From contig OZ244217.1 in the NCBI GenBank assembly GCA_965216935.1, positions 601,827 to 665,826 of the forward strand: a DNA stretch of 64,000 nucleotides. Reading direction: 5' to 3'. Positions 1-49,030 of this stretch are shown one piece after another. The notes under the pieces were generated by a model, which was not told the origin of the DNA, did no database searches, and saw only the letters and a program-made list of their open reading frames with translations. Each line of letters starts with the position of its first letter. Position 1 is the stretch's first letter. The position numbers were made by a program, and so were the translations under genes. The DNA is from Acidobacteriota bacterium. Its GTDB lineage: Bacteria; Acidobacteriota; UBA890.

Positions 1-757
1 GGCGCTGTTTCGTACGTTTCCGATGTGCGAGGACCTGGTGCGGGCGAGCCGGGCTACAGCGATGCACGGGGAGTCGGCCTGCGCCTGGCTGCGTGCCCAG
101 GTCCCGGCACCCGTAGTGTCCGTTGCTCACTGGCGTTCCGTCGATGTAGACCCCGAGGCGCGCGACGTGTGGAGGGGTCGTCTCGTCGGCGAAGACGAGG
201 TGTTGATCGGGAGCTTCGGCAACATCGGTCCGGAGCGCCGCCTCGACAAGCTCCTCGCCGCCCTCGCCGAGCTTCCGAGCGGGCTCCGCTGGCGGCTGGT
301 GGTTGCCGGCAGGGTGGCGCCCGATCTCGACCTCCAGGCGCGCGCCGGCGAGCTCGGCATCGCCGAGAGGGTCACCTGGCAGGCAACGCTGAACGACGCG
401 GATTTCGTCGCCGTGATGGCGGCGACAGACGTGGCCGTCAACCTCCGCTATCCGCCGGCCCGGGCCTCCTCGGGCGTGCTGCACCAGCTGTTGCAGCTTG
501 GCGTCCCGACGGTGATCAGCGACGTCGTGCACTGGCGCGACTATCCCTCGACGATCGTCAAACGAGTTCCACCGGGGCCGGACGAGGCCGAGCACGAAGC
601 CCTGCGCAGTGCGCTGGTCGCCTGGGTTGGTAGTGCCGGCGACCGCGCCACCGCCAGCGCCGCCGCGGCGTCCTGGGCGTCGTTGAACCTGACACCGGAG
701 CGGATGCGCGACAGCTATGTCGAGGCAGTCGGAGAAGCCGTGCGGCGGGCGGTCTAG
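1..757 (+). CDS. Glycosyltransferase family 1 (GT4), C-terminal part; 5' end lies outside the window
   Basis: Translation shows a GT-B C-terminal domain pattern (VVAGRV...RYPPARASSG...LGVPTVISDV). The ORF is open to the window start. Confidence 0.6.
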   Translation, partial: ALFRTFPMCEDLVRASRATAMHGESACAWLRAQVPAPVVSVAHWRSVDVDPEARDVWRGRLVGEDEVLIGSFGNIGPERRLDKLLAALAELPSGLRWRLVVAGRVAPDLDLQARAGELGIAERVTWQATLNDADFVAVMAATDVAVNLRYPPARASSGVLHQLLQLGVPTVISDVVHWRDYPSTIVKRVPPGPDEAEHEALRSALVAWVGSAGDRATASAAAASWASLNLTPERMRDSYVEAVGEAVRRAV

Positions 758-893
758 AGCCCGTGCGGCGGACGGTCCGGAGCCCGTGCGGCGGACGGTC
801 CGGAGCCCGTGCGGCGGACGGTCCGGAGCCCGTGGGGCGGATGGTCCGGAGCCCGTGCGGTGGGTGGTCCGGAGCCAGCGCGACGGGTGCTCC
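731..893. repeat. Tandem array of about 7 copies of a 23-bp unit (GGAGCCCGTGCGGCGGACGGTCC), each carrying the palindrome TCCGGA; the last copies are degenerate
   Basis: Direct reading: perfect copies at 756-778, 779-801 and 802-824, then diverged copies at 825-847, 848-870 and 871-893. The array begins inside the last codons of the upstream GT4 gene. Confidence 0.9.
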
Positions 894-1059
894 GGAACTC
901 CCCGGGACGGGCGGCCTCGAGTGCGTCTCGCGGGCCTCTCGCGGCGCGACCTTGATGTATCATCCCTCCTGACCCGCCCGCCGAGCCCGTGGATCCCGGA
1001 TCCCGACCTACATTGCGAACAGGCCCACCGGCGCCCTTCGTACGTCCCTGATCGATTCC

Positions 1060-2388
1060 ATGAACCATATGCAAATCGCCGTGATCGGCACCGGCTACGT
1101 TGGCCTCGTGTCCGGTGCGTGCTTCGCCGACTTCGGCATCAACGTCACCTGCGCCGATATCGACGAGGGCAAGATCGCGCAGCTCGAGGCCGGCGAGATC
1201 CCGTTCTACGAGCCGGGGCTGTACGAGAAGGTGCAGGCGAACGTTGCCGCCGGCCGGCTGTCGTTCACCACGGACGTGGCCGCGGCGATCCGCGACGCCC
1301 TGGTGGTGTTCATCGCCGTGGGCACACCGGCGAATCGCGACGGCACCGCCAACCTGACCTACATCGACGCCGTCGCCTCCGAGATCGGGCGCAATCTCGA
1401 CGGCTACAAGGTGGTAGTCACCAAGAGCACGGTGCCGCCGCGGACCGGGGAACGGGTGAGAACGCTGATCGAGGCCGAGGCCGGCGCGGACGCGCGCTTC
1501 GACGTCGTCTCGAATCCGGAATTCCTGCGCGAAGGCTCGGCGATCGAGGACTTCATGCGCCCGGATCGCATTGTCGTCGGGGCGGAGTCCGAGCGGGCCA
1601 TGGAGATCATGCGCGAGCTGTACCGGCCGCTCTACCTGATCGAGACGCCGTTCATCGTCACCGACGTGGCGACGGCGGAGATGATCAAGTACACCTCGAA
1701 CGCCTTCCTGGCCGTGAAGATCTCGTTCATCAACGAGATCGCCGACGTTTGCGAGCGCGTCGGGGCTGACGTGCATCAGGTCTCGAAGGCCATGGGGCTG
1801 GACGGACGTATCTCGAGCAAGTTCCTGCACCCGGGCCCCGGCTTCGGCGGCTCCTGTTTCCCGAAGGACGTCAGCGCGCTGGTATCGACGGCCGAAGCGG
1901 TCGACTTCGAGTTCAAGATCGGCAGGGCCGCCCTCGAGGTGAACGAGCGCCAGCGTCGCCTGATGGTCGAGAAGATCAAGGCGGTCGCGGGGGACGTGGA
2001 CGGCAAGGAAATCGGTTTCTTCGGCCTCGCGTTCAAGCCGAACACCGACGACATGCGCGACAGCCCGACGATCGAGATCATCAAGGGCTTGCAGAAGGCC
2101 GGGGCACGGATTCGCGCCTACGACCCGGCGGCGATGGAAAACGCCCGACACATCTTCGACGACGTCGACTACCGTGAAGACGCCTACGCCGTTGCCGAGG
2201 GTGCCGACGTTCTGGTCGTCGCCACCGAATGGAACCAGTTCCGCAGTATCGACCTGGAGCGCATCAAGGAGAGCATGCGTGAGCCCGTGGTTGTCGACAT
2301 GCGCAACATCTACGATCCCGCCCGGATGCGAGAGCTCGGATTCACGTACGATTGCGTCGGTCGGCCGGGCGGGAACCGGACGGCCTGA
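1060..2388 (+). CDS. ugd: UDP-glucose 6-dehydrogenase (UDP-glucose/GDP-mannose dehydrogenase family)
   Basis: N-terminal Rossmann motif MQIAVIGTGYVGLVSGACFA, catalytic GGSCFPKD motif, 442 aa full length. Confidence 0.92.
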   Translation: MNHMQIAVIGTGYVGLVSGACFADFGINVTCADIDEGKIAQLEAGEIPFYEPGLYEKVQANVAAGRLSFTTDVAAAIRDALVVFIAVGTPANRDGTANLTYIDAVASEIGRNLDGYKVVVTKSTVPPRTGERVRTLIEAEAGADARFDVVSNPEFLREGSAIEDFMRPDRIVVGAESERAMEIMRELYRPLYLIETPFIVTDVATAEMIKYTSNAFLAVKISFINEIADVCERVGADVHQVSKAMGLDGRISSKFLHPGPGFGGSCFPKDVSALVSTAEAVDFEFKIGRAALEVNERQRRLMVEKIKAVAGDVDGKEIGFFGLAFKPNTDDMRDSPTIEIIKGLQKAGARIRAYDPAAMENARHIFDDVDYREDAYAVAEGADVLVVATEWNQFRSIDLERIKESMREPVVVDMRNIYDPARMRELGFTYDCVGRPGGNRTA

Positions 2389-2444
2389 GCTGTTGAACCC
2401 TGTTAACCCCTGACGGCTCGCAGCGCCGCAACCAGGAGGGCGCA

Positions 2445-4034
2445 GTGGACCGGGACGAAGTCTCCGGACGCCTCGAGAAGGTCCGCGCCGCGGTGCGCGA
2501 GCGGCTTGCCGAGCGCGAGCCCGCGGTTTTCGACGACACGGCGCGTGAAGACGTTCCGTTCCACCTGCAGCCGGGGATCGGCGTCGTCATCGGGGGCGAT
2601 CCGCAGCTCACCGTCACCGACGAGCTGACCGAGGCGAACCGTACCGCGGACGTGTTCGGCCCGCTGCCCTCGCAGGCTCCGGTCGTCGGCCCGGTGATCA
2701 ACCTGGTGCGCCGCCTCATGCGTCCGGTCGTGAAGGTCTTCTTCGGCGAGCCCTTCGGCCGGCAGCAGGAGTTCAACGCCCACGCCGTGCGCCACATGAA
2801 CGAGCTCGGCAACCGGCTCGAGCAGCGGGTTCGCCATCTCGAGGAGGCGCTGGCCGAGTGGTCCGCGAACCCCGGCGGTATCGACGCGCGCGTGCGCAAG
2901 AGTCTGAACGACTACGACGCCGCCTTGCGACAGCGACACATGACGTTGTTTTCGGCGCTCGAGGAAGACGTGCTGGTGGCGCACACGGCCGCCGAGCGGG
3001 TGCAGAAGCTCGAGGAGCTGGTTGTCGAGCGCGCCCAGGCGGTCGATCGGCGTTTCGCCGAGAAGGACGAGGTCTTCGATCGCACCGTCAGCGAGTGGCG
3101 GCGTCGCGAAGGAGCGATCGACGATGCCGTCGGGCAGGTCGGTGAGCTCATGGCGATGCGCTCGTTGCTGCGCAAGGCGCTGGAAACGGCGTCGGCCCCG
3201 GGACCGGCAACGGTTGCGGGTGCGGCAGCCGCGGCGCCACAGGCAGCGGAATCGGTTGCGGTGGCCGCAACGACGCCCCCTGCGGGCGAGCCCGATGCCT
3301 GGAGCGAGCTCGGAGAGTGGATGGGGGACGAGGACTATCGCTCGTTTCAGGATCGGTTTCGCGGCGAGCCGGAGGTCATCGCCGAGCGCATGCGGGCGCA
3401 CGTGGCGCGTTTCGAGGATGCACCCGGGGTGGTCGCCGACCTCGGCTGCGGCCGGGGCGAGTTCCTCGACCTGCTGCGCGACGCCGGCCGCGAGGCGATC
3501 GGCGTGGAGATCAACGCCGCCGACGTCGAGGAGTGCAAGCGGCGCGGACACGAGGCGTTCGTCGGCGATCTGTTCGAATGGCTCGAAGACCGGGACGACG
3601 ACGAGCTCGGCGGTATCTTCATGGCACAGGTGATCGAGCATTTGCCGCCTACCGACTGGCAGCGCTTCGTCGAGCTGGCCGCCCGCAAGCTCGCCCCCGG
3701 GGGCCGCGTCGTCGTCGAGACGATCAACCCCGAGAGCCTCTACGCGCTGGCGCGCGCGTACGTCATCGACCCGACCCATATCCGGCCCGTGCATCCGGAG
3801 CTGCTGGCGTTTCTGGCTCGCCGCGCCGGGCTGCACCCGGTAGAGGTCGAGCTGCAGTCGCCGGTCCCGGACGACGAGCGCCCGACCGGGCTGCCGTTCT
3901 TCCGGGACCCGCCCGAGGGCGACCTGGGCGAGGAGCTGGCCTCGCTGAAGGAGGCCTTGTTGCGGCTCGATCGCATCTGCTGCGCGCCACAGGAGTACAC
4001 CCTGCAGGCGACAAAACCCGCGGGATCGCGCTGA
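2445..4034 (+). CDS. Two-domain protein: N-terminal 300 aa charged and coiled-coil-like (ELTEANRTA, EELVVERAQAVDRRFAEKDE) plus a C-terminal class I SAM-dependent methyltransferase
   Basis: The C-terminal half carries the DLGCGRGEF SAM-binding motif (motif I) and the LAPGGRVVVET post-I region. The N-terminal half has no recognisable catalytic motif. The stop overlaps the next start (TGATG). Confidence 0.7.
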   Translation: MDRDEVSGRLEKVRAAVRERLAEREPAVFDDTAREDVPFHLQPGIGVVIGGDPQLTVTDELTEANRTADVFGPLPSQAPVVGPVINLVRRLMRPVVKVFFGEPFGRQQEFNAHAVRHMNELGNRLEQRVRHLEEALAEWSANPGGIDARVRKSLNDYDAALRQRHMTLFSALEEDVLVAHTAAERVQKLEELVVERAQAVDRRFAEKDEVFDRTVSEWRRREGAIDDAVGQVGELMAMRSLLRKALETASAPGPATVAGAAAAAPQAAESVAVAATTPPAGEPDAWSELGEWMGDEDYRSFQDRFRGEPEVIAERMRAHVARFEDAPGVVADLGCGRGEFLDLLRDAGREAIGVEINAADVEECKRRGHEAFVGDLFEWLEDRDDDELGGIFMAQVIEHLPPTDWQRFVELAARKLAPGGRVVVETINPESLYALARAYVIDPTHIRPVHPELLAFLARRAGLHPVEVELQSPVPDDERPTGLPFFRDPPEGDLGEELASLKEALLRLDRICCAPQEYTLQATKPAGSR

Positions 4035-5125: not shown

Positions 5126-6448
5126 ATGCGCATTGCCGCCGCGCTGCCCAGCCTCGAGCCGACCGCGCCGCACCGGCGCGCCCTCGACGCGATGCTCGCA
5201 CGCGTCGTCGAGGCGGGCCACGAGGTCGCGGGCTTCGCCGAGCACGACCGCACCGAGGACGCCGCACCGTTTCCCGTTTTCCACTATCTGCGCATGCCCG
5301 AGCGGCACGACGATCGCGCCTTCGACGCCGCCCTCTATCCGATTGGCCGCGACGCTTCGCCCTATCAGGGGGTGTTCGCGCTGATGCATCGCTACCCGGG
5401 CGCGGTCTGGTTTCTCGACCCCATCGTGCATCACTTCGCCGTCGGCGGGATCGCGCTGATGGACGACTGGGTCGGCTACCGCCGGCTGCTCGACGAGGCC
5501 TACGGCACCGACGGTGGAGCGCTGGCGCAGACAGTGGCGTCGAACTGGGGGACGGGGGCGTTGTTTCGTCGCTACGACCTCGTGCAGGCGATGGCAGCCG
5601 GGCAGAAGCGGGTGCTGGCGGCGTGGCCCGCGTTGGCCGACAGGCTGTCGGCGCGTCTCGAGGGGCGCGAGATCGGCGTGGTTCCGCTGGTGTCGGCGGC
5701 GTCGTCGGTGGGTCGTGCTGCCGGAGGGCCTGCCGACGGGTCTGCCACAGCGATCCGGCGCCTCACCATTATGACGGTCAACGAGTCGTTCCCGGCCAGT
5801 GCCGTGCGGGTTGCCGCAGCGGCGCTGGACGTTGCCGACGATCTCGACGTGCGCCTGTGCATGAGCGAGCCGATTCATCGCACCGAGGGAGCGCGCCTGG
5901 CCGAGCGATGGGGCATCGAAGGGCGGATCGACTGGATGCTGAACAACGTCCCGGAGCGCCTGGCGGAGGCGGCCGCGGACAGCGACATCGTCGTCTGGCT
6001 GGCCGAAGAGCTGGAAGGACGGCATCGGCTGGTGCTGCTCGATGCGATGGCCGACGGCCGGATCACGTTCGTCCCGCGAGGCGGCCTCTACGACGACCTG
6101 CCCGACGGAGCGGTGATTCGGCTCGATCTCGGCCGGACGCTGCCGTCCGTGTTCGGTGGACTGCTGGAGGCGATCACCCAGGACCATGAGCTCGCCGCCG
6201 GCCTGGTGGAACAAGCCCGCGCGTTTGCCCGGACGCGCCCGACCCCGGACGAAGCGGCCGCAATGCTGGTCGACGAGCTACGCGCTTCCGCCGCCGCCGG
6301 CCCGGTCGCGCCCCGGCCGATCTCGCGCCCGAGCTGGGAGAAGGTGGATGCGGGGGCCGCTTCCGCCGGTGTTCCCGGCGGAGCCGGCGACCCGACGCGG
6401 GATCGCGTCGCCGAGATCCTGCGCCGGCAGACCGAACCCTTCCGATGA
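5126..6448 (+). CDS. Divergent GT-B/GT4-like protein, possibly catalytically degenerate
   Basis: The N-terminus MRIAAALPS...VVEAGHEVAGFA resembles the GT4 N-domain. The C-terminal region LVLLDAMADGRITFVPRGG resembles the GT4 donor-binding region but lacks a clean EX7E motif. The stop overlaps the next gene's start (ATGA). Confidence 0.4.
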   Translation: MRIAAALPSLEPTAPHRRALDAMLARVVEAGHEVAGFAEHDRTEDAAPFPVFHYLRMPERHDDRAFDAALYPIGRDASPYQGVFALMHRYPGAVWFLDPIVHHFAVGGIALMDDWVGYRRLLDEAYGTDGGALAQTVASNWGTGALFRRYDLVQAMAAGQKRVLAAWPALADRLSARLEGREIGVVPLVSAASSVGRAAGGPADGSATAIRRLTIMTVNESFPASAVRVAAAALDVADDLDVRLCMSEPIHRTEGARLAERWGIEGRIDWMLNNVPERLAEAAADSDIVVWLAEELEGRHRLVLLDAMADGRITFVPRGGLYDDLPDGAVIRLDLGRTLPSVFGGLLEAITQDHELAAGLVEQARAFARTRPTPDEAAAMLVDELRASAAAGPVAPRPISRPSWEKVDAGAASAGVPGGAGDPTRDRVAEILRRQTEPFR

Positions 6449-9168
6449 GCGCCTTCGCCCTCGGGTTGGCCGCCATGCTGTGGCTTCCGGGCTACCTCGT
6501 TCTCCGGCTATCCGGTGAACCGGTCGTCGGCGGCGAGGCCGGGAAGCGGCGCTGGTCCATCGGCGGGACGGAGAAGCGCTTCGCCGAGGTGGCGATCTCG
6601 CTGCTCTTCTTGCTCTGGATCGGCGTCACTCTGGCGACGATCGGCGTGATGTTGCCGGCGACCCTACTCGGCGCCCTTGCCCTGCCGGCGTTGGCGGCCG
6701 CGGTCCTGTTCACCAAGCGCGAAGGTCGCCTGCCGCTGCCGTGGCGCGGCGCCACGTCGTCCGCGGCGATGTCGCCCGCAGCCCTGTCGGACGGACAACC
6801 TCGCCTCATCGGTTGGGTGGCGCTGGCCCTGGCCATCGCCGGCGGGCTGCTGTATCAGCCCCCCTTCGAACAGATCGTCGGCGGCCAGGACCCGGTGACC
6901 TACATGGTCTCGGGCATTCAGCTGGGGCGGACGGGCGCCTGGGAGTCGACCGACGAGATCGTTCGCACGATTCCCGAGCAGCAGCGGACAATTCTCCTCG
7001 GCCCGGACCTGCGGGAGAGGCTCGGGCATTGGTCATCTCGGTTCCTCGGCTGGTATCTGATGGATCCCGAGAGCGCCCGGGTCGTTCCGCAAGGGTTGCC
7101 CCTCTATCCGGTGGCGATCGCCGTCGGCTACATGGTCGCGGGGGTGGAGGGGGCGGTTCGGGTCACGCCGATCCTCGCGGTGGCCGCGGTGCTGGCGCTC
7201 TTCTTTCTCGGCAGCCGGTGGCTGGGAGTCGCTGCTGGTGCGATCGGCGCGCTCCTGTTGCTCGTCTCCCCCCCGCAGGTGTGGTTCTCGCGCTTCGCCA
7301 CGGCGGAGTCGGTAACCCAGCTGCTCTTCGTTCTCGGCCTCTACGGCCTTCTAATGCAGCGTCGTGGGGGCGGCTGGGCCTTCGGGCTGATGGCGGCGGT
7401 CGCCTTCGGGCTCTCCTGGCAGGCGCACATCTGGACGGTGTGGTTGGTGCTGCCGCTGGCCGCCATCCTGCTGTTCGATATCCGCCGCGGGCTGCTCGAT
7501 CGTACGGTTCTGCTGTCGTTCTGGGGGCCGCTGGTCGTTCTCGGGCTGCAGGCGCTCACGCTCTACTTCACCGTAACGACGGCGTATCTGCTCGGTGCCT
7601 ACAAGGTGATCCGGCAGTCGAGCTGGGCCCTCATACCGCTGATCCCCGGGGTGGTCGTCCTGTTGTTCGCGCTGTGGTACTGGGGCCGCCGGTCGGGGGC
7701 GTCGGGGTCGGGGGGAGGCTCGCAGGGCCCTGAAGGGTCCGAGCCCGGGGCGCCCCACGACCATTCCGCCGGTGCCGTCGGCTGGCCGCGCAAGGTGATC
7801 GCCGCAGGTGTGGTGATCGTGGCCGTCTACGGCTACTGGGTGCGTCCGGCGATCACCGTGGTCGCCAACCAGTGGCGGGCGGAGTCGTTCGTTCGCCTGG
7901 TGGTGGCGGTCACGCTGCCGGTCTTCTGCTTCGCCGTCGTCGGCCTCGCCATGCTTTTCCTGGACCGCCGCCGTGGGGAAGCGTCGTTCTGCGTGCTGGC
8001 GATGACCTTGGGAATCATGGTGCCGGTCCTCTACGAGCCGAACATCGTCCGCTGGATGTTGTGGGCGGTACGCCGTTACCACGCCTTCCTGCCGCTGGTG
8101 TGCCTGTTCGCCGCCGTGCCGATATGGTTCGCCGTGAGTGGCGGCGGTGCGTGGCGGGCCGCGTTCGGCCCGCCGAGAGGGACCGGAGTGGTAGAGGACG
8201 GTTCTACGGGAGGGGACGGCGGCGCCGTGGTTCCTGAGGGTCGCCCGGGCACGGTGACGGGTCCGAGGTGGGCGGTGGTGGCGGGTGTTCTGGTGGTGGC
8301 GCTCCTCGCGCTGCCCCTGGGCTCTCGGGGCTGGACGTTCCGCGGCTTCAAGCAGCCGGGCGAGAGCATCGCGCTGGTCGAGGAGATGGCCGCGAGCTTC
8401 GAGGACAACGCCGTGCTGGTCTTCGAAGCGCGCTCCGGTTGGGGAGCACTGGACTTCGCCGCCCCGCTGGCCTATTGGAAGGGCTTCGACGTCGTGCTGC
8501 TGTGGCACAAGGAGACCGACGCGGCGGTGCTGATCGACTTTGTCCGGCGCCAGGCGCAGCGCGGCCGGCCTGTCTACTTCATCACCCAGGGCTTCAACTA
8601 CTTCGTCTCCGAGCCGCGCATGGTGCCCCATCGCCGCTGGCGGTTCGCGCGTCTCCACATGCAGCAGCTGGACGGCCAGCTGCCGCGTGTCGTCATTCCC
8701 TCGAGCTTTCCGGTCTCCAGCTACCGGCTCGAGCCTTCGGGTGTGAACGGACCGCTGGACGGCATGCTGGATGTCGGCGAATGGGACGACGTCTACGTCG
8801 GCGAAGCCCTGCCGTGGGAATACTCCGGCGACATCACTGCCCGGTGGACGAAGCAGACCGGATTCTTCTGGCTCCCCGGCCTGGACGAGACGGCGACGGA
8901 GATCGTCGTCCACGCCGACACGATCCATGGGTCGGAGGCCTTCGACCGGCGGCTTCGCGCCCGTCTCGACGGTATCGATCTCGGCGAGATTCCCGTCGAG
9001 CAGCAGTGGACCGACTACGTTTTCGAGGTACCCTCCGACTGGCGTCCCGCGGCCGGCTCGGCTCCGAGGTTGGACCTGCTCATCGAGCCGCTGCAGCCCG
9101 ACGCCGTGAACGGTAACGGTGACCGGCGTGACCTGGGGGTACTGGTGAACGCGATACTGTGGCGATGA
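6445..9168 (+). CDS. Large polytopic membrane protein (about 540 aa with at least 10 predicted TM helices) plus a 360-aa C-terminal soluble domain; GT-C-like (ArnT/PMT-type) glycosyltransferase candidate
   Basis: Hydrophobic-segment pattern with a conserved acidic loop (GGQDPVTYM) after the early TM helices. It sits beside two polyprenyl-phosphate GT2 genes. Confidence 0.45.
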   Translation: MSAFALGLAAMLWLPGYLVLRLSGEPVVGGEAGKRRWSIGGTEKRFAEVAISLLFLLWIGVTLATIGVMLPATLLGALALPALAAAVLFTKREGRLPLPWRGATSSAAMSPAALSDGQPRLIGWVALALAIAGGLLYQPPFEQIVGGQDPVTYMVSGIQLGRTGAWESTDEIVRTIPEQQRTILLGPDLRERLGHWSSRFLGWYLMDPESARVVPQGLPLYPVAIAVGYMVAGVEGAVRVTPILAVAAVLALFFLGSRWLGVAAGAIGALLLLVSPPQVWFSRFATAESVTQLLFVLGLYGLLMQRRGGGWAFGLMAAVAFGLSWQAHIWTVWLVLPLAAILLFDIRRGLLDRTVLLSFWGPLVVLGLQALTLYFTVTTAYLLGAYKVIRQSSWALIPLIPGVVVLLFALWYWGRRSGASGSGGGSQGPEGSEPGAPHDHSAGAVGWPRKVIAAGVVIVAVYGYWVRPAITVVANQWRAESFVRLVVAVTLPVFCFAVVGLAMLFLDRRRGEASFCVLAMTLGIMVPVLYEPNIVRWMLWAVRRYHAFLPLVCLFAAVPIWFAVSGGGAWRAAFGPPRGTGVVEDGSTGGDGGAVVPEGRPGTVTGPRWAVVAGVLVVALLALPLGSRGWTFRGFKQPGESIALVEEMAASFEDNAVLVFEARSGWGALDFAAPLAYWKGFDVVLLWHKETDAAVLIDFVRRQAQRGRPVYFITQGFNYFVSEPRMVPHRRWRFARLHMQQLDGQLPRVVIPSSFPVSSYRLEPSGVNGPLDGMLDVGEWDDVYVGEALPWEYSGDITARWTKQTGFFWLPGLDETATEIVVHADTIHGSEAFDRRLRARLDGIDLGEIPVEQQWTDYVFEVPSDWRPAAGSAPRLDLLIEPLQPDAVNGNGDRRDLGVLVNAILWR

Positions 9169-28625: not shown

Positions 28626-29180
28626 TTAGTTTTCCGCGCTGCCGGCGCTCAGGACCTCGATCGTCAGCTCGTGGTTCGTGTAGATGTCGATGTCGGCGGC
28701 AACGGTCACCGCTTCGCGGGCGACCGTCTCGGCATCGAAGTCGGTGTGCTGCAAGAGCGCTCGCGCCGCGGCCAGCGCCATCGGCCCTCCCGAGCCGATC
28801 GTCAGCACGCCGTCGTCGGGCTCGATGACGTCGCCGGTCCCGGACAACAAAACGGAAGTCTCCGCATCCGCGACGATCATCAGGGCCTGCAAGTTGCGCA
28901 GGCTACGGTCCATGCGCCAGTCTTTCGCCAGCTCTACGGCGGCGCGGCGCAGGTTGCCGCGAAACTCCTTCAGCTTGCCCTCGATGCGCTCCAACAGGGC
29001 GAGACCGTCGGCGGAGGATCCAGCGAAGCCGACCAGGACCTTGTCGTCGTGCAGCCGGCGGACCTTCTTCGCGCCGTGCTTCATGACGGTCGTGTCGAGG
29101 CTCACCTGGCCATCGGAGACCATCGCCACGGCGTCGCCGCGCCGTACGCAACAGACGGTCGTGTGGTGCCATTCGCTCAT
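28626..29180 (-). CDS. hslV: ATP-dependent protease peptidase subunit HslV
   Basis: TTVCCVRRGDAVAMVSDGQVS...GSGG. The catalytic Thr pair is preceded by MSEWHH. Confidence 0.93.
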   Translation of the reverse strand: MSEWHHTTVCCVRRGDAVAMVSDGQVSLDTTVMKHGAKKVRRLHDDKVLVGFAGSSADGLALLERIEGKLKEFRGNLRRAAVELAKDWRMDRSLRNLQALMIVADAETSVLLSGTGDVIEPDDGVLTIGSGGPMALAAARALLQHTDFDAETVAREAVTVAADIDIYTNHELTIEVLSAGSAEN

Positions 29181-29341
29181 CGAGTGATTGTAGCAATTGT
29201 GTCCCTGGGCGCCTTCGGCGCGAACGGCGGACGGTGCGACGCACGGCCGAGCGGTTCGACGATCGCGGCGGACGGTCGCGCCTCGCCGGTCTCCCGAGCT
29301 ACCGAATCCCCGTCCCCTCGGCTTCCGAACCCGCGGACTGT

Positions 29342-29393
29342 CGAGCTCCCGGCGGCCGAGCTCGCCGGGGCCGAGCTCCCCACCCCCGAGCTC
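29342..29393. repeat. Four CGAGCTC heptamers (palindromic GAGCTC core) at exact 15-bp spacing
   Basis: Direct reading: CGAGCTC at 29342, 29357, 29372 and 29387. Lies between the xerC stop (29407) and the hslV start (29180). Confidence 0.85.
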
Positions 29394-29406
29394 GCGGCCG
29401 GCGGTC

Positions 29407-30390
29407 TCAGGCGCGCGGGTGCGCCTTGTCGTAGATCGCCTTGAGTCGGGCCGTGGTCACGTGGGTGTACCGCTGCGTCGTTCCCAGCGAGGCGTGCCCG
29501 AGCAGCTCCTGAATGGCGCGCAGGTCGGCGCCGGCGTTGAGCAAATGGGTGGCGAAGGAGTGGCGGATGGCGTGCGGGGTGACGTGCTTGTTGATGGCCG
29601 CGTCGCCGAGGCGACGGGAGAGCAGCTTGCGCAAGGAATCGTTGGAAAGCCGCTTTCCGGCGGCGGAAAGAAACATCGCCGGCCTGTCGTCCCGGTTCCA
29701 TCGGCGGCGCACGTCAAGGTAGGCGCGGAGCGCCTCGGCGGCGTCGCTGCCGAAGGGAACCACGCGCTCCTTGCGGCCTTTCCCGAGAACACGCACCGTG
29801 CGTTGATCGAGGTCGACACCGGTTTCGTCGAGCCCGGTGAGCTCGCTTGCTCGCAACCCGGTGGCGTACAGCAGCTCCAGGATGGCCCGGTCGCGACGTC
29901 CCTCGTCGCTGTCGTCGGGCGACTCGAGCAAAGCCGCGATCTCGGGCTCGGTGAGAAACCGCGGCAGCTTCTGCGGCGCCTTCGGGTTGCGTACCGCACG
30001 CGCCGGGTTGACCTGCAACGCGCCGGTGCGGCAGAGCCACGTGCAGAAAGAGCGCAGCGCCGCCAGCTTTCGACCCATCGTCACGGCCGACAGCGAGGCG
30101 GCGTGCATGCGCGCCAGCCAGGCACGCACCGCCGCCGTTTCGATCTCTCCCGCGGCAAGCGTGCGGGTCTCCTCGGGAGCGGCTGCCTTTGCGCGACGCG
30201 TCCCGCGCCTTCCCGGCGGTTGGCCGCGGTAGTCGGCGTCGACCCCGCCTGTCCAAGCGGCCAGAAAGCAGGCGAAATGGGTCAGGTCGGTCCGGTATGC
30301 GCGTATCGTGTGGTCCGACGCGCTTTCCTCGACGGCGAGGTAGACGAGGAATTCGTCGAGACCCTCCAGGACAACAGCGGTAGGCGGCAC
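29407..30390 (-). CDS. xerC: Tyrosine recombinase XerC/XerD family
   Basis: N-terminal core-binding region (EFLVYLAVEESASDHTIRAYRTDL) and C-terminal catalytic RHSFATHLL...LGHASLGTTQRYTHV. GTG start. About 35 aa is inserted in the N-domain. Confidence 0.92.
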   Translation of the reverse strand: MPPTAVVLEGLDEFLVYLAVEESASDHTIRAYRTDLTHFACFLAAWTGGVDADYRGQPPGRRGTRRAKAAAPEETRTLAAGEIETAAVRAWLARMHAASLSAVTMGRKLAALRSFCTWLCRTGALQVNPARAVRNPKAPQKLPRFLTEPEIAALLESPDDSDEGRRDRAILELLYATGLRASELTGLDETGVDLDQRTVRVLGKGRKERVVPFGSDAAEALRAYLDVRRRWNRDDRPAMFLSAAGKRLSNDSLRKLLSRRLGDAAINKHVTPHAIRHSFATHLLNAGADLRAIQELLGHASLGTTQRYTHVTTARLKAIYDKAHPRA

Positions 30391-32803: not shown

Positions 32804-33868
32804 TCATCCCTCGAGGGTGGCAAGGGCGTCGGCAACGGAGGTGAACACCTGGCGGATGGAGTCGACCGTCCGCCCTTCGACGTCGTGGTCCAGGTTGGCG
32901 GAGGCGACGGCGATGGCGCCGACCCTGCCGCTGGCGCACAAATAGCCCGCCAGGGTGCCGACCTCGGACGGGTCGAAGCCACCATCGACCCGATAGTGGA
33001 CGCCGGGCGCGAAGAGCGGGTCGAGGGCGTCGACGTCGAAGTGCAGATACACGTCCCGGCCGGTCGAATTCGCCGCGGTCGCGGCCTTGGCAGCGGCCGG
33101 GTCGACGGCGCTGATCTGTGCCCGGGCTTCCGGGGGCATGATCGAGATCTCGGGGACCTCGAGGATCTCCATCACCACCTCCTCGGGGCCGACCGCACGG
33201 GTGGCTGTGGTGTTGACGTGCCGAACACCGAACCGGACGAGATTCTCGCTCTCGCCTTCGTCGAGGTCACGGCCGCCGAGAAGGAAAGTTCGCCCGCCCG
33301 GGGGCGGTGCGGCGCCGTCGTGCAGCGATACGAGCTCCTCTGGCCCATGTCCGAGCATGGCCGCCATCGGCATCCCGGTCACGAGACCCGACGTGCTTGT
33401 CTCCGGCGTGTTCAGGTCGCCATGGGCATCGAGCCAGGCGACAGTGATGCTTCCGTGCTCCTGCCCCTGCTCCTGTCCCTGCTCCTGCCCCTGTGCCTGC
33501 CGCTGTGCCCGACCCTGCCCTTGCGCCAGGGCGGGGGCGACGCCGAGGCAAAGCGAGCATTCCCCGCCGATGACGACCGGCAGGTCGCCGTCTCTGATCG
33601 CTTCGGACACAGCCTGGCGAACGCCGCGGGCCATCTCGGCGACGTTCTTCAAGTGAACCGGGTCGATGCCGGCGCTCCCGTCGACCGCGCTGCGGAGGTC
33701 ACTTGGCGACATCGGCGCCACGGCGACGTCGCCACCGTCGGTGACCTCGTGTCCGGCCTCCTGGAGCCATTCGAGCAGGCCGGCCCGCCGCAGCAAGCCG
33801 GGGGTCCGCCGGGCGCCGAGCTCGAGCGTGCCCCAGGCGGACGGTACGCCGATGACTCGAAGCTTCAT
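32804..33868 (-). CDS. Arginase/agmatinase/formiminoglutamase-family ureohydrolase with an internal QG/QE low-complexity insert
   Basis: GGECSLCLG, DAHGDLNTPETS and HFDVDALDP metal-binding motifs. ATG 33868 is preceded by GGAGAG. Confidence 0.75.
   Translation of the reverse strand: MKLRVIGVPSAWGTLELGARRTPGLLRRAGLLEWLQEAGHEVTDGGDVAVAPMSPSDLRSAVDGSAGIDPVHLKNVAEMARGVRQAVSEAIRDGDLPVVIGGECSLCLGVAPALAQGQGRAQRQAQGQEQGQEQGQEHGSITVAWLDAHGDLNTPETSTSGLVTGMPMAAMLGHGPEELVSLHDGAAPPPGGRTFLLGGRDLDEGESENLVRFGVRHVNTTATRAVGPEEVVMEILEVPEISIMPPEARAQISAVDPAAAKAATAANSTGRDVYLHFDVDALDPLFAPGVHYRVDGGFDPSEVGTLAGYLCASGRVGAIAVASANLDHDVEGRTVDSIRQVFTSVADALATLEG
33455..33535. repeat. Hexanucleotide microsatellite (CTGYYC)n of about 12 units inside the ureohydrolase coding sequence
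   Basis: ctgcccctgctcctgtccctgctcctgcccctgtgcctgccgctg... encodes QGQGRAQRQAQGQEQGQEQGQEHG on the minus strand. Confidence 0.8.
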
Positions 33869-33950
33869 GCGAGTGCTCTCCGTTGTGTCAACCGGCCGGC
33901 CGCATGCGAGCACGGCCGCGCTGCGGCAGAGGATGCTCGGGGCTCGAGGA

Positions 33951-47188: not shown

Positions 47189-48199
47189 ATGTTCCGCGAC
47201 CTGGTACGAATTCGGGTCCAGGCGGGTGATGGCGGTCGTGGCTGCGTCGCCTTCCGGCGCGAGAAGTACGTACCCCATGGAGGTCCCAGCGGGGGCGACG
47301 GCGGTGACGGCGGCGATGTCTACCTGGTCGCTTCGAGCGGCTATGCCCAGCTCGGTCATCTCCGCGACGGTCAGATTTTCAAGGCGACACGCGGACGTCA
47401 CGGCGAGGGCAGCAACCGGCATGGGCGGACCGGAGACGATCGCGAGGTTCCCGTGCCCACCGGCACCGTCGTGCGCGACAACGCGACCGGAGAGCAGCTC
47501 GGCGACCTGGAGATCGACGGCGAGCGGCTGCTCGTCGCTCGCGGTGGCAAGGGAGGGCGAGGAAACACGCGCTTCAAGTCGTCGACCAACCGCGCTCCAC
47601 GACGCGCGGACCCCGGCCTTCCGGGGGAGCGCAGAGAGCTGGATCTCGAGCTCAAGCTCATCGCCGACATTGGACTCGTCGGGCGTCCCAACGCCGGCAA
47701 GACGACCCTGCTGCGACGCCTCACCGGGTCACAGGGAAAGGTCGCCGCGTATCCGTTCACCACGTTGGAGCCGAACCTGGGAATCCTCGAGCTTCCAGGG
47801 TATCGGCGAGCCGTTCTGGCGGACGTTCCGGGCCTCATCGAGGGGGCCCATCGGGGCGAGGGATTGGGCCTCAACTTCCTCCGCCACGTCGAGCGGACCG
47901 GGGCGATCGCGGTGCTCGTGGACACGGTTCCTCCCGACGGCGACGTCGTCGAGCACTACGAGATGTTGTGTAGCGAGCTGGGGCAATACAACGCAGTACT
48001 GTTGGAGAGGCCGCGTCTGGTGGTGGCGACGAAGACGGATTTGTCGCCCGGTCCCGACGTGGTCGAGAAGCTTCGCCGCGCTGCGGAAGCGAACGGCGCG
48101 GCATTCTGTGCGTTGTCGTCGGTCAGCGGTGATGGTCTGGACGACTTCGTCGGCTGGGTTGCAGAGCACCTGGCCGACACCGACGACGACGGATCGTAG
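47189..48199 (+). CDS. obg: GTPase Obg/CgtA
   Basis: Obg fold N-domain (GDGGRGCVAFRREKYVPHGGPSGGDGGDGGDV) plus G-domain (GRPNAGKTTLL). Confidence 0.95.
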   Translation: MFRDLVRIRVQAGDGGRGCVAFRREKYVPHGGPSGGDGGDGGDVYLVASSGYAQLGHLRDGQIFKATRGRHGEGSNRHGRTGDDREVPVPTGTVVRDNATGEQLGDLEIDGERLLVARGGKGGRGNTRFKSSTNRAPRRADPGLPGERRELDLELKLIADIGLVGRPNAGKTTLLRRLTGSQGKVAAYPFTTLEPNLGILELPGYRRAVLADVPGLIEGAHRGEGLGLNFLRHVERTGAIAVLVDTVPPDGDVVEHYEMLCSELGQYNAVLLERPRLVVATKTDLSPGPDVVEKLRRAAEANGAAFCALSSVSGDGLDDFVGWVAEHLADTDDDGS

Positions 48200-48210
48200 C
48201 GGCCTCGGCG

Positions 48211-48315
48211 CTCGATGCGGACAATTGGCAATGAATCGTAAAGGGATCGGGGCTCGACGCGGACAAATGCCCGATCGTAAAGGGATCGGTGGTCGACGCG
48301 GATCATCGGTGGCGT
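48211..48315. repeat. About 2.5 tandem copies of a 40-bp unit containing a CCGATC-N7-GATCGG hairpin
   Basis: ctcgatgcggacaattggcaatgaatcgtaaagggatcgggg / ctcgacgcggacaaatgcccgatcgtaaagggatcggtgg / tcgacgcggatcatcggtggcg, between obg and nadD. Confidence 0.8.
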
Positions 48316-48337: not shown

Positions 48338-49030
48338 ATGGCGTTGAAGAGGGTGGGCGTTTTCGGGGGGACCTTCGATCCCCCGCACCTGGGGCATCTG
48401 ATTCTGGCGGAAGAGATCCGCGAGACCTTCGGACTGTCCGAGGTGCACTTCATGCCCTGCAACGAGCCGCCGCACAAGGATCGCGCCGATCTCACCGACG
48501 CGAAGCACCGTTTTGCCATGGTGGTCGCGGCAACCCTCCACAATCCGTCGTTCGTCGCCTCGCCCATCGAGGTGAATCGGCCCGGGAAGAGCTTCAGCAT
48601 CGACACGGTGCGGGAGCTTCAGCAGGGCATGGGCGACGATACCGAGATCGTCTTCGTTACCGGCCTCGACGCCTTCCTCGAGATCGAGACGTGGGAGGAA
48701 TACGAGCAGTTCCTCGACCTCTGCCACGTTGTCGTCGTCAGCCGCCCGGGCCACGGCTTCGAGGACGTCGGCAAGCTGCCCGACTGGATCGGCGAGCGGG
48801 TGGTCGACCTGCGGGGATCGGAGGCTCCGGCGGTAGAGCAGTATCCCGAGGGCTCGCGCGCGGTTTTCCTGTCCGACGCGGTGCACATCGATATTTCGTC
48901 CACCGACATCCGCGAGCGCATCGCCGCGGGGTCGAGCGTCCGCTACAAGATCCCCTCCGAGGTGGAGCGATACCTCCGTGCCCACGGGCTGTACCGCGAG
49001 GCCGAGGTCCCGCAGAAGGTGGCCTCGTGA
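48338..49030 (+). CDS. nadD: Nicotinate-nucleotide adenylyltransferase
   Basis: VGVFGGTFDPPHLGHL motif. Confidence 0.93.
   Translation: MALKRVGVFGGTFDPPHLGHLILAEEIRETFGLSEVHFMPCNEPPHKDRADLTDAKHRFAMVVAATLHNPSFVASPIEVNRPGKSFSIDTVRELQQGMGDDTEIVFVTGLDAFLEIETWEEYEQFLDLCHVVVVSRPGHGFEDVGKLPDWIGERVVDLRGSEAPAVEQYPEGSRAVFLSDAVHIDISSTDIRERIAAGSSVRYKIPSEVERYLRAHGLYREAEVPQKVAS

Follow-up and report, generated by a model that had tools for sequence, protein, structure and literature searches.

VNTR3239/ETR-F, a repeat locus specific to the M. tuberculosis complex, has enlarged the rnc-fpg1 spacer from a few base pairs to 279–358 bp (PMC2734929). Its length is polymorphic among isolates and correlates with the fpg1 transcript level (PMC2734929). 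In the account given by the same publication, which cites Supply et al., MIRUs are elements of 40–100 bp found at 41 dispersed loci of a single genome (PMC2734929). For Borg elements, head-to-tail repeats have been described that form rapidly and are specific to their locus, and replication slippage was proposed as their origin (PMC9879509). Finally, REPs are imperfect palindromes of 20–40 bp that occur at high copy number in a genome (PMC3733652).

Here, a 23-bp head-to-tail array was analyzed that lies at 738–898 (+) in a 64-kb window, the window being the whole stretch of DNA under study. The array consists of seven contiguous copies without any indels, and it is an unambiguous tandem repeat and a new instance of a well-known kind. 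No other repeat in the window came close to it in strength: Tandem Repeats Finder reported a period of 23 at 738–876 (6.0 copies, 93% matches, score 222) and at 738–896 (6.9 copies, 90% matches, score 213). Allowing up to three mismatches, the unit was matched five times in the window compared with 0.01 matches expected, and none of 100 shuffles reached this number. The tandem array that the sequence-only reading had placed between a GT4 gene and ugd is therefore real.

The in-register copies start at 738, 761, 784, 807, 830, 853, and 876, and from 5' to 3' their mismatches to the consensus CCGTGCGGCGGACGGTCCGGAGC amount to 3, 0, 0, 0, 2, 3, and 7, which agrees with the three perfect and four diverged copies counted before. 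Copy 0 (738–760, +, three mismatches) comprises the last six codons (A V R R A V) and the TAG stop (755–757) of the glycosyltransferase gene, just as an array start within the last codons of the upstream gene had been proposed. The core of the array is formed by three identical copies of CCGTGCGGCGGACGGTCCGGAGC at 761–829 (+), followed at 830–875 (+) by two diverged copies with two and three mismatches, whose variants at unit positions 12/13 are common to neighboring copies. The degenerate last copy (876–898, +) is identical at 16/23 positions and stands in register; it shares G12/T13 with the preceding copy and has kept the TCCGGA palindrome. Alone, this copy does not beat shuffles, and it can be recognized only by its register and the shared variants. 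The TCCGGA palindrome had been ascribed to each of about seven units; it is present in six of them (776, 799, 822, 845, 868, and 891), while the first copy carries TCTAGA instead, which holds the stop codon.

Along the array, unit positions 12 and 13 read G-C in copy 0, A-C in the next three copies, then A-T, G-T, and G-T, so the shared variants are nested across copies with one apparent chimera. Together with the mismatch gradient of 3, 0, 0, 0, 2, 3, and 7, these nested variants are as expected if the copies arose from one another by slippage or unequal exchange. With regards to coding capacity, the unit length of 23 bp is not divisible by three, and the array is therefore non-coding downstream of the TAG stop. 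Long open reading frames do cross the array, one at 717–1769 (+) alongside ugd and one at 754–2151 (−) antisense to it, and translation of the array in these frames would give a peptide repeat of 23 residues for every three units. Both were rejected as genes, since stop-poor frames of this kind are typical of a genome with 69% GC. The GC content of the array itself is 76%. Its end lies 162–167 bp before the ATG of ugd, close to the value of about 165 bp given by the sequence-only reading. The stretch from 899 to 944 (+) is the non-repetitive, GC-rich rest of the variable spacer and aligns poorly with the relatives described below. A search of this stretch for decayed repeats returned none, its similarity to the unit not being significant, and it may be a remnant of a C-terminal tail that is still translated in some relatives.

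Upstream of the array, the window opens with the 3' part of a GT4-type glycosyltransferase gene (2–757, +, running off the window start; TAG stop at 755–757) with the Pfam domains Glycos_transf_1 and Glyco_trans_1_4. Its homologues are 54–74% identical, and its C-terminus can be aligned with theirs. Downstream follows ugd (1060–2388, +), which encodes a UDP-glucose 6-dehydrogenase with the N, central, and C domains of the Pfam UDPG_MGDP_dh series. With a glycosyltransferase, Ugd, and a methyltransferase as its neighbors, the array is part of a chromosomal glycan gene cluster. Between the glycosyltransferase genes of this cluster, two open reading frames on the + strand (5126–6448, 440 aa, and 6445–9168, 907 aa) show a coding-like GC3 of 0.85–0.87 and were not matched by any Pfam family at E-values of 1e-5 or below.

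Eight related Acidobacteriota loci (L011, L012/13, L014/15, L016, L017, L019, and L020/21) with ugd genes 78–89% identical were read for comparison. The closest homologues of the glycosyltransferase and of Ugd come from metagenome-assembled Acidobacteriota, and the nearest of these ugd genes is 89% identical. Where enough flanking sequence was present, the gene order uvrA-like, GT4, ugd, methyltransferase, GT4 was conserved; in the more distant relative L020/21, the first GT4 gene is missing. None of the eight loci (0/8) carries a tandem repeat between GT4 and ugd or upstream of ugd. In alignments of these loci, a conserved block upstream of ugd (945–1059, +) stood out, which lies outside the array and fixes its position. 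This block contains the 12-mer TTGATGTATCAT (952–963 in the window), which is invariant in the window and in all eight related loci and precedes the ugd ATG by 104–109 nt (by 80 nt in L017). In the relatives it is located at 1249 in L011, 4892 in L012, 532 in L014, 2894 in L016, 840 in L017, 2397 in L019, and 2396 in L020, and it is followed by a conserved stretch, CC..GAAACCCGCCCGC. In L020/L021, the region from 2149 to 2500 is a 352-bp spacer between the uvrA-like gene and ugd, yet TTGATGTATCAT is situated at the usual 105 nt from ugd. The 12-mer is a near-palindrome (TGATG/TATCA) with a single occurrence in the window. The ugd leaders of the aligned related loci gave no conserved RNA structure; the only four invariant pairs lie inside TTGATGTATCAT, and covariation was not found. 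TTGATGTATCAT is probably a promoter or operator for ugd, and for the control of ugd in this clade it is probably a more useful lead than the array.

The spacer between GT4 and ugd measures 302 bp in the window, compared with 100–129 bp in five and 221 bp in one of the six relatives that carry the GT4 gene. Measured from the GT4 stop to TTGATGTATCAT, the distance is −4 bp in L012, L016, and L019, where the TGA stop falls inside the element (CTT TGA TG) and the GT4 tail is approximately 12 residues longer. It is 10 bp in L011, 49 bp in L017, 113 bp of non-repetitive sequence in L014, and 194 bp in the window. As this distance ranges from −4 to 113 bp in the relatives, the array sits in a segment that was already variable in length and that only some lineages translate. 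The E-A-L-R codons of the relatives align with copy 0, and this homology to coding sequence suggests that the array arose in situ from the gene's end and was not inserted as foreign DNA. By eye, a 9-mer of the unit, ACGGTCCGG, was also spotted in the tail-coding region of L016, which is suggestive, but this region does not align reliably and the shared 9-mer was given no weight.

Taken together, the array is likely a lineage-specific minisatellite of the VNTR type that was generated by slippage in a hypervariable tail and spacer segment and that is probably near-neutral. In this scenario, a 23-bp segment at the very end of the GT4 gene would have been duplicated out of register, repeatedly, either by replication slippage or by unequal recombination. 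The segment that hosts it, the poorly conserved C-terminal tail plus the spacer between the conserved ...YVEAVxEAL helix of GT4 and the invariant TTGATGTATCAT, is the only part of the GT4–ugd junction with freedom to vary in length and even in coding status. The three identical central copies would represent the latest expansions, and the copies at the edges would be older and decaying. Most likely, the array is transcribed within the GT4–ugd spacer, and its main effect would probably be just a spacer longer by approximately 140–190 nt, which should be neutral or nearly so. The sequence-only reading had offered a slippage-prone, length-variable tract as one of its possible explanations, and as far as the anatomy goes this is supported by the identical central copies, the decaying edges, a unit that is not a multiple of three, and the absence of the repeat from the orthologous loci read.

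Further arrays are present in the window. At 29342–29398, a 15-bp unit with a GAGCTC palindrome is repeated 3.8 times in a spacer on the − strand (29224–29398), which is bordered by a gene for a XerC-like tyrosine recombinase (29407–30390) and then by an HslV-like proteasome-subunit gene (28626–29180); in − strand orientation, its first unit begins 8 nt past the recombinase TGA. Beside it, the same xerC-like/hslV-like spacer holds a 20-bp repeat of 1.9 copies. A 39-bp unit repeated 2.4 times (48205–48302) fills the spacer between obg (47189–48199) and a NadD-like cytidylyltransferase gene (48338–49030), beginning 6 nt past the TAG stop of obg. One part of this 39-bp unit, GATCGTAA, is similar to the end of obg (GATCGTAG). 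The 23-, 15-, and 39-bp units are mutually unrelated, and unrelated arrays next to stop codons in housekeeping spacers fit a mutational process that acts wherever the sequence is tolerant, not a set of dedicated regulatory arrays. This distribution suggests that stop-adjacent spacer arrays are a generic tendency of this genome. A coding repeat of 6/12/18 bp (TGCCCC on the + strand) was also seen at 33456–33524 within a gene on the − strand (32804–33913), where it encodes a Q/G-rich low-complexity insert, QGQGRAQRQAQGQEQGQEQGQEHG. Canonical G-quadruplex motifs (G3+) number four in the window and zero in the array, and a G-quadruplex reading of the array was rejected.

Several other explanations were weighed against a near-neutral minisatellite, one being that the array is a tandemly amplified member of a dispersed repeat family, either REP/BIME-like or MIRU-like. 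An intercistronic site beside a stop codon, where MIRUs and many REPs are found as well, would fit such a family, and so would the tandem repeats in other spacers of the window and the core 11-mer CGGCGGACGGT of the unit, which occurs twice more in one other repeat-bearing spacer (29225 and 29266) compared with 0.31 occurrences expected in the window. However, outside the array the 64-kb window contains no further copy of the 23-mer with up to three mismatches on either strand, and the units of the other arrays (15, 20, and 39 bp) are unrelated to it. When 596 Gb of genomes plus a metagenome collection were scanned with the degenerate pattern GAGCCCGTGNGGNGGNNGGTCCGGA (21 specified bases), two matches in genome contigs and eight in metagenome contigs were returned, all of them single chance matches in unrelated coding sequence. 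The match in a Bacteroides genome and all eight metagenome matches represent the same gene fragment, and the other genome match belongs to an actinomycete. Since the copies are also direct, form no strong stem-loop, fold like shuffled sequences, and begin with homologous coding sequence that argues for an origin in place, a dispersed family is very unlikely, and the REP-like element that had been suggested found no support in the window and in these public collections. A protein-binding array would require a regulator that binds TCCGGA or CGGAC-N-GTCCG cooperatively, as on iterons or multi-site operators, and thereby controls transcription entering or starting at ugd. The hexamer is regularly spaced, is kept in 6/6 non-coding copies including the degenerate one, and belongs to an array just upstream of a conserved cis-element, all of which would suit a binding array. 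Nevertheless, 39–43% of tandemly repeated 23-mers contain a 6-bp palindrome, whether they are sampled from the window or are random sequences of the same composition. The window contains 33 TCCGGA sites, 27 of them outside the array, compared with 33 expected for the whole window with the array included (Markov-1), and GGTCCGGAGCC with one mismatch is found at chance level (5 outside the array versus approximately 5 expected). As about 40% of units give such a palindrome and the hexamer is not enriched, TCCGGA was rejected as a significant signal; such a palindrome arises incidentally when a GC-rich 23-mer is repeated in tandem. The symmetry around the hexamer stops at 6 bp, and the 11-bp palindrome CGGAC-G-GTCCG (5-bp arms), which the unit holds as well, is no longer intact in the DNA of the diverged copies, where its left arm is mutated. 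A sub-period of 11/12 bp, as in response-regulator direct repeats, was not detected within the unit (12/23 identity at shifts of 11 and 12; P = 0.30 versus shuffled units). In addition, the sites are absent from all relatives read, and neither a regulator nor a rep gene is adjacent. The intact TCCGGA in 6/6 downstream copies has a probability of (17/23)^9, or approximately 0.07, over nine independent substitutions, a post hoc value that is not significant; it leans weakly towards constraint and leaves the verdict unchanged. The protein-binding array, another proposal of the sequence-only reading, thus gained no positive evidence and is regarded as very unlikely.

At the RNA level, the GT4–ugd transcript might contain a series of CGGAC-G-GUCCG hairpins, or GGA sites bound by a protein such as CsrA, with an effect on stability, processing, or termination. 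For two adjacent units, the predicted fold is an interrupted hairpin with 10 bp and −24.6 kcal/mol at an ensemble frequency of 85%, and GGA is found 10 times in the 161 nt of the array compared with 2.8 at the background rate. The changes in the CGGAC arm of the copies at 830 and 853 are all G.U-compatible in the + strand RNA (three independent events, chance of approximately 1 in 8). CsrB/RsmZ-type RNAs present many GGA motifs in hairpin loops; of those in the array, about half lie in stems of the predicted fold. The folding z-scores against dinucleotide shuffles were only −0.89 to −1.67 for parts of the region, −0.96 for 730–945, and +1.16 for the whole spacer (700–1062), and an exceptional RNA structure was rejected on these scores. 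Rfam returned nothing for the whole window at the gathering threshold, and for 650–1150 even an E-value cut-off of 10 gave only a sub-threshold ybhL match inside the GT4 coding sequence. Neither a terminator nor a sigma-70 promoter consensus was found in 1–3000, a U-tract terminator is lacking, the RNA is G-rich, quite contrary to a Rho-utilisation site, and the element is absent from all relatives read. An RNA element is hence considered extremely unlikely, and modulation of read-through into ugd by the array, as had been suggested, found no support, given that no terminator-like site and no exceptional RNA structure were present. The G.U-compatible arm changes and the recurrence of CGGCGGACGGT are weak signals against neutrality and do not change the verdict. 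A copy-number-tunable regulatory tract of the contingency type, in which copy changes would alter the expression of ugd and the downstream glycan genes, appears unlikely as well. Such an effect could be exerted by altered spacing or phasing ahead of the ugd promoter/operator block, or through intercistronic RNA stability. No more than 46 bp separate the end of the array from the conserved ugd block with TTGATGTATCAT, its three perfect copies imply a recent and possibly ongoing expansion, and a precedent exists in the rnc-fpg1 spacer of M. tuberculosis, where the fpg1 transcript level tracks the repeat length (PMC2734929). However, the relatives work without any repeat, some of them even with the GT4 stop inside the conserved element, and upstream of the array nothing is conserved but coding sequence, so that a change in distance would have no obvious partner. 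Moreover, similar arrays in housekeeping spacers (obg/nadD and xerC/hslV) argue for a generic mutational origin. That the array is a functional, copy-number-tunable module of an environmental Acidobacteriota whose TCCGGA or CGGAC-N-GTCCG sequences are read by a regulator as DNA or act as RNA hairpins, and which sets transcription into ugd and the glycan genes, is given only a very small probability.

If such a module did exist, slippage would provide heritable and reversible variation in the output of surface polysaccharide, and a contingency locus, a type known from host-associated pathogens, would then be present outside them. Likewise, an effect of copy number on ugd expression would mean that the tuning of surface glycans by repeats also occurs in free-living Acidobacteriota. 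On present evidence, the array matters little, as it is one more short tandem repeat in a tolerant intergenic or C-terminal-tail segment of a high-GC bacterium. In any population-level study of the organism, it could possibly find use in strain typing.

Compared with known systems, several classes can be set aside. Plasmid iterons are likewise direct repeats with a period of approximately 22 bp, and they flank a rep gene and an AT-rich origin. This assignment was rejected, as the neighbors here are a glycosyltransferase, Ugd, and a methyltransferase and the local GC content is 0.75–0.76. A CRISPR array was dismissed since the start-to-start spacing equals the unit length of 23, leaving no spacers. 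Simple-sequence contingency loci have units of 1–9 nt and lie inside an open reading frame or between promoter hexamers; with a unit of 23 nt and a position between a stop codon and the conserved ugd upstream block, the array does not belong to them. The JUMPStart/ops element, which is marked by the motif GGCGGTAGnnTG upstream of polysaccharide clusters, was discarded too, as this motif was found nowhere in the window with up to one mismatch.

Other classes share more features with the array. Like MIRUs, it is tandem and intercistronic and overlaps the end of the upstream gene, copy 0 being the last six codons plus TAG; this class was nevertheless rejected, because the 23-bp unit is too short and is confined to a single locus in the searched data. 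REP/BIME elements resemble it as short, GC-rich extragenic repeats beside the 3' end of a gene that contain a palindrome. However, REPs often alternate in orientation, whereas the copies here are strictly direct and contiguous, occupy one locus, and hold palindromes of 6 and 11 bp only; as the unit is not dispersed in the searched data and shows neither a 20–40-bp palindrome nor a stable stem-loop, this assignment was not retained. The repeats of Borg elements are equally locus-specific, head-to-tail, and absent from close relatives, but they are perfect, A-rich, pervasive, and part of archaeal extrachromosomal elements, while the array has 76% GC, is partly decayed, and resides on a bacterial chromosome. 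Its head-to-tail unit of the 10–100-bp class and its absence from the orthologous site in the eight related loci are those of an intergenic minisatellite. The closest documented case is VNTR3239/ETR-F. There, a complex of 37-, 26-, 18-, and 16-bp repeats is involved, whereas the present locus is built from a single 23-mer. In both cases, lineage-specific direct repeats inflate an intercistronic spacer that is only a few base pairs long in related species, and in both high-GC genomes the repeats begin a short way past the stop codon of the preceding gene and lie ahead of the following one.
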